The notes beneath the pieces were generated by a model. That model saw nothing but the letters and a program-made list of their open reading frames with translations, was not told where the DNA came from and made no database searches. A stretch of DNA of 45,239 nt from Candidatus Parcubacteria bacterium (GTDB lineage: Bacteria > Patescibacteriota > Patescibacteriia > CAIXNZ01), in contig JAPLYF010000084.1 of the NCBI GenBank assembly GCA_026395675.1, positions 1-45,239 of the forward strand, read 5' to 3'. Each line of letters starts with the position of its first letter. Position 1 is the stretch's first letter. Shown here piece after piece: positions 20,494 to 27,224 of the stretch. The position numbers and the translations under genes were made by a program.

Positions 20494-20656
20494 GGTTGAT
20501 AAAATCAAAATTTTAATCTAAACTATATATAAGATTTTAAAATCAACGGGCTATAGCGCCCGCCGTCGCTAAAGCTATGGCGGGCAGGCAGCAAGAAGGC
20601 TAACTATACACGACGATAGCCAACTGCGGCTCGAATTTAAAAAATTTAATAATTTA

Positions 20657-22979: not shown

Positions 22980-25403
22980 ATGGCCCAAGATTTTAAAAGC
23001 GGGCTGACTGAAAATGAGGCCCAAAAAAGATTAGAACAATTTGGCTTAAATAAAATTATCATTCCCAAAGAAATTAGCTTCTGGTCAATTACCAAAGAAG
23101 AAATCGCAGAGCCAATGATCTTGCTCTTGCTGGTCATTGGCTTTTTTTATACGCTCTGGGGCAAATTAGAAGATGCCCTGACTATTTTTGTGGTTATTTT
23201 GCTTTTGGTTTTTGTTGAGGTCTGGAATGAATACCGAGCCAAAAAAGCTATTGCCTCCCTGTCAAAAATCTCTGCGCCTAAAACCAAAGTTTTGCGTGAT
23301 AATGAAATTAAAGAAATTAATACCGAAGAAGTTGTGCCTGGCGATATTTTAATTCTAATTCCAGGGACGCGTGTTGCCGCTGACTGCAAAATTTCTCTTT
23401 CTTACAGTCTGCAATTTGACGAATCCTCGCTGACTGGTGAATCTTTTCCCGTAGAGAAAAAAGTCAATGACGAAATTTTTGCTGGCACCTTAGCCGTGGC
23501 TGGCGAAGGCCAGGCTGAAGTTTTTGCCACTGGCAAAGAAACTAAAATGGGGAAAATTTCAGAGCTCTCGAGAGAGATTAAAGAGCCGAAAACAGCCCTG
23601 CAATTAGCCATGAAGGATTTAACAAAAAAACTTGTCTGGGCAGCTCTCTTTATTTCAGCCTTAATTCCTTTAATTGGAATATTACGAGGACAAGAATATA
23701 AGCAAATGGTTTTAATTGGTTTGGCTCTGGCTTTTGCCATTATCCCCGAAGAATTCCCCATTATCATTACCATGATTTTAGGTTTGGGCTCTTATAAACT
23801 TTCCAAACAAAATTTCCTGATTAAAAAGCTTAAAGCCGCGGAAGTTTTAGGCGATGCCACTGTGATTGTTACTGATAAAACTGGCACCATCACTGAAAAT
23901 ATTATGAAGGCTGTTTCTTTTTTTCCCCAAGGCCAAGAAAAGGAAATTTTAAAAGCAGCCATCTCTGCCACTACGGCTTTGTCTTTAACCCCGACAGATA
24001 AAGCAGTCATTAGCCGGGCCAACGAACTTAAGATTGGCAATAATTTTGGCCAAATTATCAGTGAAAGAAATTTTGGTGGCGATCGAAAAACAAAATCACT
24101 TTTACGCGAACAAGAGGGCCAGTTAATGCTCTCTATAAGCGGCGCGCCTGAAGAAGTTTTGGCAATTTGCCAGGGTGAAAAATCCCAGATTGAAATGGCG
24201 TTAAATCAAGAGACAAAAAACGGACGCCGAGTTATTGCAGTAGCCCAAAAGATTATTTCAGCTGCCAATAAAAATACGCCAATAGCTGATTTGGAAAAAC
24301 ATCTTGATTTTATCGGCTTGATTGCTTTGGAAGATCCACCCAGAAAAGGGGTCAAAGAAACTATTGCCCAAGCTACTAAAGCAGGCATCAGAACTATTAT
24401 GGTCACTGGCGATCATCCGCTCACAGCGGCCTTCATTGCTAAAAGCGTAGGCATAAACGCGGCCAAAGTTTTAACCGGAGCAGAACTTGATAAATTATCA
24501 GAGGAACAACTCAAGGAAACAGTAAAAAATGTCAATGTCTATGCCCGCGCTCTCCCAGAACACAAATACCGCCTGGTCCAGGCCTTACATGCTAATAAAG
24601 AAATTGTGGCTGTGACAGGTGATGGAGTAAATGATGCCTTGGCTTTGGAAGCAGCAGACATTGGCATTGCCATGGGCATTAAAGGCACTGATGCGGCCAA
24701 GGAAGCGGCTGACGCAGTTTTGGCTGATGATAACTTTATCACTATCTCCCGCGCTATTTTTGAAGGCAGAAAATTTTATGATAATTTAAGCAAAAGTTTG
24801 AAATATTATTTAGGCGTCAAAGTTGCTTTAATCTCTTCATTATTATTGCCAGTAATTTTTAATCTGCCGTTGCCTTTTGCGCCCATTCAAATTATTATTC
24901 TAGAATTATTCATGGATCTGGCTGCTTCTGCCGGCTTTGTGGCTGAACCTGCTGAGAAAAATATTTATACTAGGCCACCGCGCGATCCCAGACAAAAATT
25001 ATTTAATAAAAAATTAATTATGACGATTTTTATCTATGGTTTTACTTTATTTGCCGCTGTCATGGCTGCTTATTTTTATGCTAAAAGCCAGGGCTATAAT
25101 GTTATCGAAATCCAAACTTTTGCTTTCACTGCCTGGATAATAGGCCATATAATTCTGGCTTATGTTTCCCGTTCAGATAAAGTGCCTCTTTATAAACTCA
25201 AGGTATTCTCCAATAAAACCATGAATCTCTGGCTTGGGGCTGTAATTATTTTTCTCTTTTTGGCGCTAGCTATTCCGAGAATAAATTTTGAACTAAAACT
25301 CGCGCCCATTTCTTTCAGCCACTTTATTCTAATTTTTATTTTTAGTTTAATAATAATCGGCTGGCTGGAAATCAGGAAATTATTTTATAAACCAACTACT
25401 TAA
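22980..25403 (+). CDS. cation-transporting P-type ATPase (type II, Ca2+/Mg2+-like)
   Basis: DKTGTITEN, TGES, MVTGDH, VTGDGVNDALAL; N-terminal GLTENEAQKRLEQFG. Confidence 0.93.
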   Translation: MAQDFKSGLTENEAQKRLEQFGLNKIIIPKEISFWSITKEEIAEPMILLLLVIGFFYTLWGKLEDALTIFVVILLLVFVEVWNEYRAKKAIASLSKISAPKTKVLRDNEIKEINTEEVVPGDILILIPGTRVAADCKISLSYSLQFDESSLTGESFPVEKKVNDEIFAGTLAVAGEGQAEVFATGKETKMGKISELSREIKEPKTALQLAMKDLTKKLVWAALFISALIPLIGILRGQEYKQMVLIGLALAFAIIPEEFPIIITMILGLGSYKLSKQNFLIKKLKAAEVLGDATVIVTDKTGTITENIMKAVSFFPQGQEKEILKAAISATTALSLTPTDKAVISRANELKIGNNFGQIISERNFGGDRKTKSLLREQEGQLMLSISGAPEEVLAICQGEKSQIEMALNQETKNGRRVIAVAQKIISAANKNTPIADLEKHLDFIGLIALEDPPRKGVKETIAQATKAGIRTIMVTGDHPLTAAFIAKSVGINAAKVLTGAELDKLSEEQLKETVKNVNVYARALPEHKYRLVQALHANKEIVAVTGDGVNDALALEAADIGIAMGIKGTDAAKEAADAVLADDNFITISRAIFEGRKFYDNLSKSLKYYLGVKVALISSLLLPVIFNLPLPFAPIQIIILELFMDLAASAGFVAEPAEKNIYTRPPRDPRQKLFNKKLIMTIFIYGFTLFAAVMAAYFYAKSQGYNVIEIQTFAFTAWIIGHIILAYVSRSDKVPLYKLKVFSNKTMNLWLGAVIIFLFLALAIPRINFELKLAPISFSHFILIFIFSLIIIGWLEIRKLFYKPTT

Positions 25404-25423: not shown

Positions 25424-25780
25424 ATGGAAAAATTTAGGTTTTTAAAATGGCCAGTTTATAAAGATGCTAAAAAAATATTTGGTCTAATTTTGGAAACAGT
25501 TGAAAAATTCCCTAATCATATAAGATTCAGTATTGGCCAACAATTGATAAGAGCAGCTTTTTCAATAATTTTAAACATCGCCGAAGGTAGCGGCAGGAAA
25601 ACAGACAAAGAATTGAAAAGATATTTTGACATATCCCTTGGTTCGTGTTATGAATTATTAGCCTGTGCCGATACCTTGTCAGAACAAAATTTTATATCAC
25701 AAGAACTTTTTGAAAAAATCTATGTTTCAATTGATGAAATAACCAATCAACTCGGCGGTTTTAAAAAATCCATAAAATAG
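25424..25780 (+). CDS. four-helix-bundle protein (23S rRNA intervening-sequence / Avd-like family)
   Basis: QLIRAAFSIILNIAEGSGR.T.KE..RYF.ISLGSCYEL is the family signature. Confidence 0.8.
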   Translation: MEKFRFLKWPVYKDAKKIFGLILETVEKFPNHIRFSIGQQLIRAAFSIILNIAEGSGRKTDKELKRYFDISLGSCYELLACADTLSEQNFISQELFEKIYVSIDEITNQLGGFKKSIK

Positions 25781-25810
25781 TTGTAGAGTTGTGGAGTTGT
25801 AAAGTTGTTT
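25779..25810 (+). repeat. four tandem AGTTGTNN octamers
   Basis: agttgtag agttgtgg agttgtaa agttgttt, overlapping the stop codon. Inverted CAACT words lie at 25393-25408. Confidence 0.7.
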
Positions 25811-25813
25811 CAG

Positions 25814-25861
25814 CGGGGTATAGCGAAGTGGTATCGCGGTCCGACGTACGTCGGACAGATC
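25814..25861 (+). other. tRNA-like gene, 5' segment (acceptor, D arm, palindromic arm, variable region)
   Basis: cggggta ta gcga agtggta tcgc g gtccgacgtacgtcggac agatc. Confidence 0.6.
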
Positions 25862-25885
25862 GGCGGGTTTAAATAAATTAATTGT

Positions 25886-26164
25886 ATGGAACAGGGATTT
25901 GTATACATTATACAAAGTCAAACATCAAACAATTATTATACTGGCTCAAGTGAAAATCCTACCAAAAGACTTTCCGAACATAATCGGGGAAAAGTAAAAT
26001 CCACCAGGAATAAAGGTCCCTGGATTTTAAAATTCACACAAGGTTTTCCTACCATAAAAGAGGCTAAGCAAATTGAATACATGATTAAGAAACTGAAAAG
26101 AAGGGATTATCTAGAAAGAATTATTCAAGATGGATATATTAAGATGAAAATAAACGGGCTGTAG
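25886..26164 (+). CDS. small GIY-YIG nuclease family protein (YhbQ/Slx1-like)
   Basis: GFVYIIQS....YYTGSS.N...RL.EHN.GK...T...GPW. The last 3 codons and the stop lie inside tRNA-Pro. Confidence 0.8.
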   Translation: MEQGFVYIIQSQTSNNYYTGSSENPTKRLSEHNRGKVKSTRNKGPWILKFTQGFPTIKEAKQIEYMIKKLKRRDYLERIIQDGYIKMKINGL

Positions 26165-26228
26165 CGAAGCTGGCTATCGCGCCACGTTCGGGACGTGGAG
26201 ACCGGCGGTTCAAATCCGCCCAGCCCGA
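26155..26228 (+). tRNA. tRNA-Pro (anticodon CGG)
   Basis: cgggctg ta gcga agctggcta tcgc g ccacg ttCGGga cgtgg agacc ggcgg ttcaaat ccgcc cagcccg a. Confidence 0.88.
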
Positions 26229-26235
26229 CCCATAG

Positions 26236-26287
26236 CGCGGTCCGACGGACGTCGGACAGATCCCGAGTTCGAATCTCGGTACCCCGA
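26236..26287 (+). other. tRNA-like gene, 3' segment (palindromic arm, T arm, acceptor)
   Basis: cgcg gtccgacggacgtcggac agatc ccgag ttcgaat ctcgg taccccg a. The 3' acceptor is perfectly complementary to 25814-25820. Confidence 0.6.
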
Positions 26288-26306
26288 AAACTTACCAAAG
26301 CTGTTT

Positions 26307-26362
26307 GGCGCGCCCCGATGAACGTCGGGGAGGTCGCCCCGCAGTGCGTGGCCAGCCCGACC
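26307..26362 (+). pseudogene. tRNA-Pro-derived 3' fragment with the anticodon arm replaced by a palindrome
   Basis: ggcgcg ccccgatgaacgtcgggg aggtcgc...ccagcccgacc. Shares aggtcgc and the 3' end with tRNA-Pro. Confidence 0.5.
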
Positions 26363-26486: not shown

Positions 26487-27224
26487 ATGTTTGTGAAGGC
26501 GTTTTGCAAAATTTCCCTGTTTTCTCTGGCGATTTTGTTTTTCTTAACCAACAAAGCCCAAAGCCAAGAAAATCAGGGCCTTTATGGTGAAACCCTTTGC
26601 AACGACCCTGATTTCCACTGCCTTACTGTCACAGCAGTTACCGCAGAAAAGGAAATCAAAACTAAAAGAGGCCTTAAAAAAATTGGGGTCTTAATGCCGC
26701 AAACCTGGCTAGAACTCTGGCCTGATGAGAATGAACGGGAAATCATCATGAAAATCAACCGGCTCAATATCAAGCTCAAAGTCGGAATGACTATTGCTGT
26801 GCCAAATGATTTAACTGCTAAAACCCTGCTGGATTTTTCTCCTTATGAGAAAAAAATTGATGCCCCCAATAAAAAACTATTGATTTTCGATCCGAATTTG
26901 CTGGCCTGGGCAGCTTATGATGCTGAAGGTAAGCTGGTGCGCTGGGGACCAGCTGTCGGCGGGAAAAAAGGCAAATTGACTGTGGTCGGCAATTTTCACA
27001 TTATTAAAAAATCAGGCCCTAAATGCCGCTCGGGTAAATATAATGCGCCCATGCCTTGGGCCATGTTTTTCCACCCGGCTGGCTATGCTTTCCATGGCTC
27101 GCCCAACGTGCCTGGCCAAAATGCCAGCCATGGCTGTGTCCGCCTTTTCAATGATGATGCCGAGTGGCTCAATAAAAATTTCGTGGAAATTGGGACAAAA
27201 GTAATTATCAATCCCTATGAATAA
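26487..27224 (+). CDS. secreted L,D-transpeptidase (YkuD domain)
   Basis: Signal peptide; FHG.....G...SHGCVRL..DDA.WL; strong SD aaaggagg. Confidence 0.85.
   Translation: MFVKAFCKISLFSLAILFFLTNKAQSQENQGLYGETLCNDPDFHCLTVTAVTAEKEIKTKRGLKKIGVLMPQTWLELWPDENEREIIMKINRLNIKLKVGMTIAVPNDLTAKTLLDFSPYEKKIDAPNKKLLIFDPNLLAWAAYDAEGKLVRWGPAVGGKKGKLTVVGNFHIIKKSGPKCRSGKYNAPMPWAMFFHPAGYAFHGSPNVPGQNASHGCVRLFNDDAEWLNKNFVEIGTKVIINPYE

Follow-up and report, generated by a model that had tools for sequence, protein, structure and literature searches.

A tRNA-Pro fragment with replaced arms in a patescibacterial genome: probable scar of serial tRNA replacement by a GIY-YIG nuclease-plus-tRNA cassette

The nearest known system to the arrangement described here appears to be SegB of phage T4, which Table 1 of PMC2988022, citing its ref. 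38, lists among free-standing GIY-YIG homing endonucleases and places in a cluster of tRNA genes. As far as that table describes SegB, it and the present locus are alike in that a GIY-YIG gene stands free between tRNA genes and is inherited with the adjacent tRNA genes, and in that the gene exhibits presence/absence polymorphism between relatives: that is, at the homologous site, one genome of the same genus (G001) is empty and the genome studied here (G000) is occupied. The candidate cassette differs from SegB in that its protein is a 92-aa UPF0213/SLX1-like protein with a short C-terminal helix in place of a separate DNA-binding domain, in that it is chromosomal and occurs in bacteria of several phyla, with homing only putative, and in that the tRNA it invades appears to be left as split pseudo-halves with a conserved palindrome for an anticodon arm, in this case as two nested shells.

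Partial tRNA genes are known as a by-product of integrative elements (van der Gulik et al., 2023; PMC9897764). The fragment studied here resembles these in being a non-canonical tRNA 3' fragment that repeats the end of a neighbouring intact tRNA; it differs in that an integrase is lacking and no element separates the repeats, in that its arms are replaced and its connectors kept, and in that the cassette would supply a whole replacement tRNA. REP hairpins carry a conserved GTAG word and are clustered around, or mobilised by, a RAYT (TnpA-REP) gene, and Rickettsia palindromic elements are small palindromes tolerated inside genes. The present genome has, like genomes with REP/BIME-RAYT systems, short GC-rich hairpin families in an AT-rich background and RAYT-like genes; however, the signature hairpin described below lacks GTAG, has six matches in the genome, none of them adjoining a Y1_Tnp match, and is linked to a GIY-YIG gene. 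The GC clusters of yeast mitochondrial DNA are small GC-rich palindromes (PMC4478555). The signature hairpin is similar to GC clusters and Rickettsia elements in being a GC-rich palindrome in an AT-rich genome that is tolerated in genes, including RNA genes (here RNase P RNA P3 and 23S rRNA), but GC clusters and Rickettsia elements insert, whereas the fragment shows whole 17-nt arms exchanged in register. We know of no nuclease gene that travels with either. A minimal nuclease together with a passenger tRNA and a signature hairpin as pseudo-anticodon arm is found in none of the systems compared, and the arrangement was not described in the literature searched, with limited coverage, on CPR/Patescibacteria tRNA palindromes, GIY-YIG with tRNA, and UPF0213. 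The sequence marks the fragment as the likely scar of a specific mobile-cassette process, apparently an undescribed one.

The window, the whole stretch of DNA analysed (45,239 nt), is contig C1 of the host genome, an assembly of 1.04 Mb with 37% GC in 89 contigs. The ORFs between 23.5 and 28.5 kb of the window are an ATPase, a four-helix-bundle protein (4HB), a GIY-YIG nuclease and YkuD, and the features of the locus are as follows.

22980-25403: P-type ATPase gene.
25424-25780, + strand: 4HB 23S_rRNA_IVP ORF (Pfam PF05635, E = 5.4e-25), immediately 5' of the tRNA debris; context only.
25814-25869, + strand: 5' pseudo-half of a tRNA-Pro designated X, read from sequence.
25839-25856, no strand: signature hairpin, the perfect palindrome GTCCGACGTACGTCGGAC, in the anticodon-arm position of the X 5' half.
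25886-26164, + strand: GIY-YIG nuclease ORF, 92 aa, UPF0213/SLX1-like (Pfam PF01541, E = 5.9e-19).
26155-26230, + strand: intact tRNA-Pro(CGG) accompanying the nuclease gene (ARAGORN; Rfam RF00005, 64.5 bits).
26233-26287, + strand: 3' pseudo-half of X, read from sequence.
26240-26257, no strand: signature hairpin GTCCGACGGACGTCGGAC, with a single T>G change relative to the perfect palindrome at 25839-25856.
26298-26362 (core 26307-26362), + strand: outer 3' pseudo-half of tRNA-Pro(CGG), the fragment studied here, from colinear alignment with tRNA-Pro(CGG) of G001.
26313-26330, no strand: 18-nt near-palindrome CCCCGATGAACGTCGGGG, CC-CCGATG-AA-CGTCGG-GG, in place of the 17-nt anticodon arm.
26336-26352, no strand: 17-nt hairpin GCCCCGCAGTGCGTGGC, GCCCCGC-AGT-GCGTGGC, in the T-arm position; 5/17 identity to the original T arm.
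26352-26362, + strand: CCAGCCCGACC, an 11-nt direct repeat of 26220-26230 (3' acceptor strand, discriminator and CC).
26487-27224: L,D-transpeptidase (YkuD) gene.

The X 5' half comprises the acceptor 5' strand CGGGGTA, the D arm, the signature hairpin, AGATC and the T-stem 5' strand GGCGG; it breaks off in the T loop, after GTT, and its 5' part is 96% identical to the tRNA-Pro(CGG) genes of two relatives (G004 and G040). The X 3' half comprises TAGCGCG, the hairpin GTCCGACGGACGTCGGAC, AGATC, an intact T arm (CCGAG-TTCGAAT-CTCGG) and the acceptor TACCCCG-A, of which TACCCCG pairs with 25814-25820; its layout recurs downstream of tRNA-Pro in a Kiritimatiellae MAG (L070), and the centre of its hairpin, ACGGACGT, recurs at another locus (L121). 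The two halves place 27-nt direct repeats (GCG, hairpin and AGATC) on both sides of the segment that carries the GIY-YIG gene and the tRNA gene. The stop codon of the GIY-YIG ORF falls within the tRNA-Pro(CGG) gene, which, judged by its sequence, would be the working tRNA of the cassette. The nuclease itself is a catalytic-domain ORF next to or between tRNA genes, as in a SegB-like free-standing cassette, and its nearest solved structures are the UPF0213 proteins 1zg2 and 1ywl, followed by SLX1.

The fragment retains GGCGCG (26307-26312), AGGTC (26331-26335) and CAGCCCG-A-CC (26353-26362), as read from sequence, and it is colinear with approximately nt 21-76 of tRNA-Pro, with one additional base; it likely extends to approximately 26298 (nt ~18), where GCTGTTTGGC resembles a D loop. 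A first-pass annotation of this DNA had described a tRNA-Pro-derived fragment in which a palindrome replaces the anticodon arm, and every element that it listed is found at the coordinates that it gave. The sequence identifies the fragment as a tRNA-Pro-derived pseudogene fragment. The repeat of 26220-26230 likewise stands: CCAGCCCGACC has three copies in the 1.04-Mb genome, one in the fragment and the others at the 3' ends of two real tRNA-Pro genes, compared with a chance expectation of ~0.05 matches by our own composition estimate. The scaffolds of X and of the fragment, said to be independent, are indeed distinct, with acceptors TACCCCG and CAGCCCG, respectively.

The anticodon-arm position of the fragment is occupied by an 8-pair stem, CCCCGATGAACGTCGGGG, with seven Watson-Crick pairs, one T.G pair and the centre AA, a centre that is found also at two other loci (L144 and L148). 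The T-arm position is occupied by GCCCCGCAGTGCGTGGC, which has CCCGCAGTGCG in common with the hairpin GTCCCGCAGTGCGGGAC at C40:2302 of the same genome, a member of an abundant 17-nt hairpin family; a T-arm swap like that of the fragment is found in a pseudo-tRNA-Pro of another genome (G039, locus L021).

The same inspection bears on the idea that the fragment belongs to a functional class of tRNA-like RNA. The fragment has no 5' half upstream, hence no paired acceptor stem, and it has neither a 7-nt anticodon loop with U33 and a readable anticodon nor a T loop TTCRANY. ARAGORN and the Rfam tRNA model RF00005 do not call it, even at E <= 10, nor does any other Rfam family match it; its fold energy shows no excess stability relative to shuffles (z = -0.12). 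No terminator-like site was found on the + strand between 25300 and 26600, and the hairpin is followed by AGGTCGCC, without a T run. The functional-class proposal of the first-pass annotation is therefore not borne out.

The origin of the fragment is indicated by the syntenic locus of G001, where the order is a 4HB remnant (a truncated copy of the ORF), GTTGTAAAG repeats as in the present genome, a tRNA gene and the YkuD gene. The syntenic site contains one intact tRNA-Pro(CGG), and contains no GIY-YIG gene or cassette, no signature hairpin, and no pseudo-halves or 3' pieces. The connectors of the fragment (GCGCG, (G)AGGTCGC and CCAGCCCGA) are 22/22 identical to the syntenic tRNA-Pro(CGG), whereas its arms are 13/35 identical (8/18 in the anticodon-arm position and 5/17 in the T-arm position), and the exchange of arms is in register, 17 to 18 nt for the anticodon arm and 17 to 17 nt for the T arm. 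The retention of all connectors together with in-register replacement of both arms, by members of recognisable hairpin families, argues that the fragment is the remnant of the locus's original tRNA-Pro(CGG) rather than a randomly decayed copy; random decay had been discounted in the first-pass annotation as well. The YkuD proteins of the two genomes are only 66% identical, and, because the genomes are thus distant, the order of events given below is a reconstruction.

The palindrome of the fragment had been described as sharing the word cgaNgNacgtcgg with the signature hairpins at 25839-25856 and 26240-26257. A shared word is real; however, 33 hairpins from loci selected by protein give a different consensus, NN-CCGAYG-N2-3-CRTCGG-N'N', in which CCGA and TCGG are invariant and which the fragment hairpin CCCCGATGAACGTCGGGG matches. 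The stems covary at three positions (T-A/C-G 18/13; T-A/C-G 15/14; C-G/G-C/T-A 13/10/5). In the host genome six sites fit the pattern, three of them in this locus. Three other accounts of the hairpin were considered and dropped. Reading the centre as an 8-nt anticodon loop (A-NNN-ACGT, with NNN being CGT, CGG or TGA) is not compatible with the consensus, which is a variable 2-3-nt centre in an 8-pair stem. Correction of a native-arm quasi-palindrome by template switching was rejected, since the stems also differ from the native arm and since the same 18-mer occurs on Pro, Arg, Thr, Ala-adjacent and other scaffolds across phyla. The palindromic footprint of a hairpin-forming transposase was rejected, since such footprints come from local sequence and identity across tRNAs would not be expected.

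The hairpin is associated with one subfamily of GIY-YIG nucleases. Five hairpin-adjacent nucleases of different lineages have a C-terminal motif in common (IEYKLKKLKSR..I..I...IKMK; IEYMIKKLKRR...IKMK in the window nuclease) that the other 11 GIY-YIG ORFs extracted from the host genome lack. A metagenome scan with an alignment of these five proteins yielded 55 loci, of which 37 were non-redundant at E <= 1e-16, chosen by protein alone. A tRNA gene lies directly 3' of the ORF at 27 of 36 of these protein-selected loci and directly 5' at four more, and the tRNA types are Pro, His, Lys, Ala, Val, Asp, Phe, Thr, Arg and Ile. A CCGAYG-N0-6-CRTCGG hairpin lies within 130 nt upstream of the ORF at 17/31 loci, where it takes the place of the anticodon arm in a pseudo-5' half of matching tRNA type, and within 200 nt past the tRNA at 10/30 loci; in the 44.7 kb of remaining flanks there are none. 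The typical unit is a 5' pseudo-half of a tRNA T, with the hairpin as its anticodon arm and broken in or near the T loop, followed by the GIY-YIG gene, the live tRNA T and a 3' pseudo-half, which starts at the D-stem 3' strand and continues with the hairpin, the T arm and the acceptor. Outside the hairpin, the loci have no conserved sequence in common apart from stretches copied from the local tRNA. We conclude that the hairpin, this GIY-YIG subfamily and split tRNAs are associated.

Searches by DNA sequence extend the distribution. When species-representative genomes were scanned for the palindrome with NNAGRTC behind it, 56 loci were obtained. Approximately 25 of them are pseudo-tRNA pieces, from Patescibacteria (Uhrbacteria, Woesebacteria, Minisyncoccota), Saganbacteria, Verrucomicrobia and Kiritimatiellae, the rest being Actinobacteria coding sequences; at four of the loci with pseudo-tRNA pieces the T-stem 5' strand is followed immediately by the start of a GIY-YIG ORF, as in the window. 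The exact 14-mer CCGACGTACGTCGG is present in 22 of 401 genomes of the class, at approximately 41 sites, compared with two genomes for the reversed control. All of these sites were inspected individually, with RNA genes checked against Rfam. Seven of the 41 are tRNA-like sequences with the 14-mer in the anticodon-arm position, on Pro, Arg and other scaffolds and including a complete cloverleaf (G123); approximately 12 are terminator-like hairpins with no cassette nearby, including two in the host genome (C14:3289 and C26:1445); in two genomes (G186 and G219) the 14-mer forms the P3 helix of RNase P RNA and in one (G290) it caps a 23S rRNA helix; and the remainder fall within other repeats or coding sequence. 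There is strong over-representation of the 14-mer at tRNA-like sites, yet it occurs beyond them. The first-pass annotation had taken a palindrome lying mostly outside tRNA-like contexts as grounds against its reading, and the exact 14-mer, taken literally, does lie mostly outside them. Because the exact 14-mer occurs without a visible cassette, in terminator-like hairpins, RNase P RNA P3 and 23S rRNA, the hairpin may have a mobility or an origin of its own.

The order of acceptor strands in the window is 5' X, 5' Pro (live), 3' Pro (live), 3' X and 3' Pro (the fragment), an order that is properly nested if the outer 5' half has been lost; that outer 5' half, which a nested origin requires, is absent from the locus. 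Comparable arrangements exist elsewhere. Locus L117 has a nuclease 68% identical to that of the window, a tRNA-Pro(CGG) of the G001 type and then a 3' piece starting with TGGCTAGCGCG and CCCCGACGTCA; L118 has two successive heterologous 3' halves, and L157 has two in tandem; and genome G063 (L037/L100) has an X-type tRNA-Pro(CGG), 21 nt, and then GGCGCG-CCCCGACGTACGTCGGGG-AGGTC. Fragments homologous to the outer 3' half lie past tRNA-Pro(CGG) in G063, L117 and L118.

We consider it probable, at roughly 70%, that the fragment represents the 3' half of the tRNA-Pro(CGG) native to this locus, left by a nuclease-plus-tRNA cassette that replaced the resident tRNA in at least two invasions. The mobile cassette would comprise a minimal GIY-YIG nuclease gene and a working tRNA gene, and would displace the resident tRNA, splitting it into 5' and 3' pseudo-halves that each carry the signature hairpin as anticodon arm. 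A first invasion would have left the outer fragment and installed tRNA X, and a second would have broken X in two and brought in today's GIY-YIG gene and tRNA-Pro(CGG), the outcome being the nested series 5' X, GIY-YIG, tRNA, 3' X and outer 3' half, with loss of the outer 5' half. At a later time a hairpin from another 17-nt family, one found across the genome, would have overwritten the T arm of the fragment. Assignment of the fragment to the first of at least two invasions agrees with its wobble-bearing hairpin and overwritten T arm, compared with the better-preserved halves of X. The fragment is presumably functionless now.

The halves of X are mosaics: GGCGG after the left hairpin matches the live tRNA and not X, and TAGCGCG before the right hairpin matches the G001-type tRNA and not X. 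Such mosaic composition speaks for a shuffling of the halves through recombination at the hairpin; instead of clean serial homing, recombination may have taken place at the 27-nt patch that the halves share. Spread of the cassette may involve break-induced copying (homing) or recombination at the hairpin or the 27-nt patch. Conserved symmetric half-sites and the SLX1-like, structure-specific fold suggest that the hairpin may be a binding or cleavage site of the nuclease, or else a cleavage-immune substitute for the natural arm; how the hairpin is inserted is something we infer from sequence. The live cassette tRNA retains its natural anticodon arm, and a simple model with the arm as target and the hairpin as immunity therefore needs extra specificity. 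The first-pass annotation had suggested a specific process, such as a palindrome-targeting nuclease; the specific process is largely upheld by the tie between the palindrome and the gene of one GIY-YIG subfamily, and targeting of the palindrome by the nuclease would be the conjectural part. A bolder version is that the hairpin is the working site of a ~90-aa SLX1-like GIY-YIG enzyme that swaps DNA hairpins in register ("arm swapping"), a form of mobility distinct from homing, transposition and site-specific integration. We regard arm swapping as unlikely. Since the same 14-mer makes up whole helices in RNase P RNA and in rRNA, and is found in terminators, a more general hairpin-for-hairpin exchange is conceivable. 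If arm swapping occurs, a cassette could disable and replace any tRNA gene, and would incidentally rewrite RNase P RNA, rRNA and terminator helices in Patescibacteria and other phyla.

The alternative that survives best, an unlikely one in our judgement, is that a dead remnant of a tRNA-Pro duplication was colonised by small GC-rich palindromes, REP/RAYT-like or GC-cluster-like, that enter or replace any hairpin, the GIY-YIG gene being a mere neighbour. The host genome has hundreds of GC-rich perfect palindromes, in families, and nine Y1_Tnp (RAYT-like) matches; other palindromes lie within the anticodon and D loops of pseudo-tRNA-Trp and pseudo-tRNA-Tyr; and the cassette-free occurrences of the 14-mer, as well as the replacement of the fragment's T arm by a different hairpin family, are as independent mobility would have them. 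However, the CCGAYG..CRTCGG hairpin is tightly linked to one GIY-YIG subfamily (17/31 upstream versus none in the 44.7 kb of flanks), half of its sites in the genome lie in this one locus, it does not flank RAYT-like genes or carry the REP word and, in tRNA-like contexts, it is always in the anticodon-arm position, never in the T or D arm.

An improbable alternative is that the fragment is an attR-type copy of a tRNA 3' end, made when an integrative element inserted into tRNA-Pro and was later lost, with the palindromic arm as the core site of the recombinase; palindromic cores are typical of recombinase sites. The direct repetition of the tRNA 3' end, the hairpin-containing 27-nt repeats that flank the GIY-YIG and tRNA segment, and the precedent of partial tRNA genes from element integration (PMC9897764) would suit such a scar. 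The repeats of the 3' end are, however, only 121 nt apart, with no integrase ORF between or beside them (the neighbours being ATPase, 4HB, GIY-YIG and YkuD); L117, the only one of the 37 loci for which ORFs are listed, has no recombinase-like ORF; and integration scars retain tRNA sequence, whereas here both arms are replaced and the connectors kept.

Least probable, by a small step, is that the fragment, singly or together with other pieces, is transcribed and acts as a tRNA-like or hairpin element for processing, stabilisation or termination of the tRNA/GIY-YIG transcript: its place directly 3' of a tRNA on the same strand, the compensatory variation in hairpin stems across loci and the same 14-mer capping terminator-like hairpins elsewhere would fit, but the missing acceptor partner, T run, terminator call and Rfam match, a fold energy equal to that of shuffles and the lack of conservation between loci outside the hairpin speak against it, and a DNA site that a dimer binds would be expected to show symmetric covariation just as much.

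If replacement by a nuclease-plus-tRNA cassette is the correct reading, tRNA genes of streamlined CPR genomes, and of some Verrucomicrobia and Kiritimatiellae, are serially overwritten by a tiny cassette, a process that would account for the dense tRNA debris around such genes, would be a source of false and missed tRNA calls in MAG annotation, and would provide a route for horizontal exchange of tRNA alleles. It would also resemble an addiction strategy: having destroyed the resident copy of a tRNA, the element supplies that tRNA itself. The conserved hairpin offers a simple sequence marker for locating such loci and a defined substrate for probing the widespread, uncharacterised UPF0213-type GIY-YIG proteins.

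Across the host genome, nine of 13 GIY-YIG matches adjoin a tRNA gene or tRNA fragment. For many of the 42 tRNA genes, the first 12-13 nt are copied upstream, joined to GC hairpins, and hairpins downstream are joined to copies of the last 11-18 nt; this pattern of flanking copies is present at all nine tRNA loci inspected in full. Hairpin families of the genome other than that of the signature hairpin do contain GTAG. The pseudo-tRNA-Trp and pseudo-tRNA-Tyr pieces that carry palindromes of other families inside their anticodon and D loops lie beside other GIY-YIG genes.

The palindrome that takes the position of the anticodon arm in the tRNA pseudo-halves of the window (main site 26313-26330) also occurs within functional RNAs. 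In two genomes (G186 and G219; loci L024/L025), the exact palindrome CCGACGTACGTCGG constitutes the whole P3 helix of bacterial RNase P RNA; in a third (G290; locus L038), it caps a 23S rRNA helix. All of these RNA genes are Rfam-confirmed. These occurrences suggest whole-hairpin replacement in functional RNAs.

Full-length cloverleaves in which the palindrome serves as the anticodon arm adjoin normal tRNA genes at L048/L103 (G123, contig C48) and at L136. These cloverleaves, called tRNA-??? by ARAGORN, have intact acceptor, D, and T arms, and may be empty landing sites or cassette deletion products. A tRNA-Pro-like sequence with the same arm is present at L031/L095 (G270, contig C6); its readable part ends at a stretch of N on the 5' side.

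In the window's own genome (G000), tRNA-Trp and tRNA-Tyr are located directly 3' of other GIY-YIG subfamilies (C36:1500-1960 and C36:3780-4520); their pseudo-5' halves have anticodon loops into which different palindromes are inserted, one example being ACCCAGCCCTTCGCGAAGGGCTGGGT, accompanied by a duplicated TCCA. Nested palindromes are also enclosed by terminator stems of G000 (C72:20560-20700, C79:10100-10240, and C65:11470-11568). These belong to the GTCATCCTGAG/GTCATTCCGAA...GAGGAATCT family, with CCTGCCTGCCGGCAGGCAGG at the tip, and the arrangement looks as if hairpins had been inserted into hairpin tips.

A common tRNA-leader layout is found at window positions 20546-20656, at C88:26160-26430 and on C36, C72, C68, and C84 of G000, and at L172, the syntenic cassette-free locus with intact tRNA-Pro(CGG) in the same-genus genome G001; it is conserved across the two genomes. 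The leader begins with a copy of nt 1-12 of the tRNA, followed by a GC hairpin that ends in GGCGGGCAGGCAG. After ~28 nt comes a second copy, of tRNA nt ~3-23, in inverted orientation, and ~45 nt of AT-rich sequence then lead to the real tRNA. The cassette model, in which a GIY-YIG nuclease gene and a working tRNA split a resident tRNA, gives no explanation for the inverted copy.

Compared over window 25424-25811 and L172, G000 has an intact gene for the four-helix-bundle (23S rRNA IVS) protein, but the G001 copy is 5'-truncated. In both genomes, GTTGTAGAG/GTTGTAAAG repeats follow 3' of the gene and extend to base 1 of the tRNA-like sequence.

G000 also contains a second tRNA-Pro(TGG):

C52:2025-2096, tRNA-Pro(TGG), acceptor CTGGCTG...CAGCCAG, discriminator T

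Its acceptor and discriminator differ from those of the three CGGGCTG-type tRNA-Pro genes of G000; a foreign origin or contamination of the bin may account for it.
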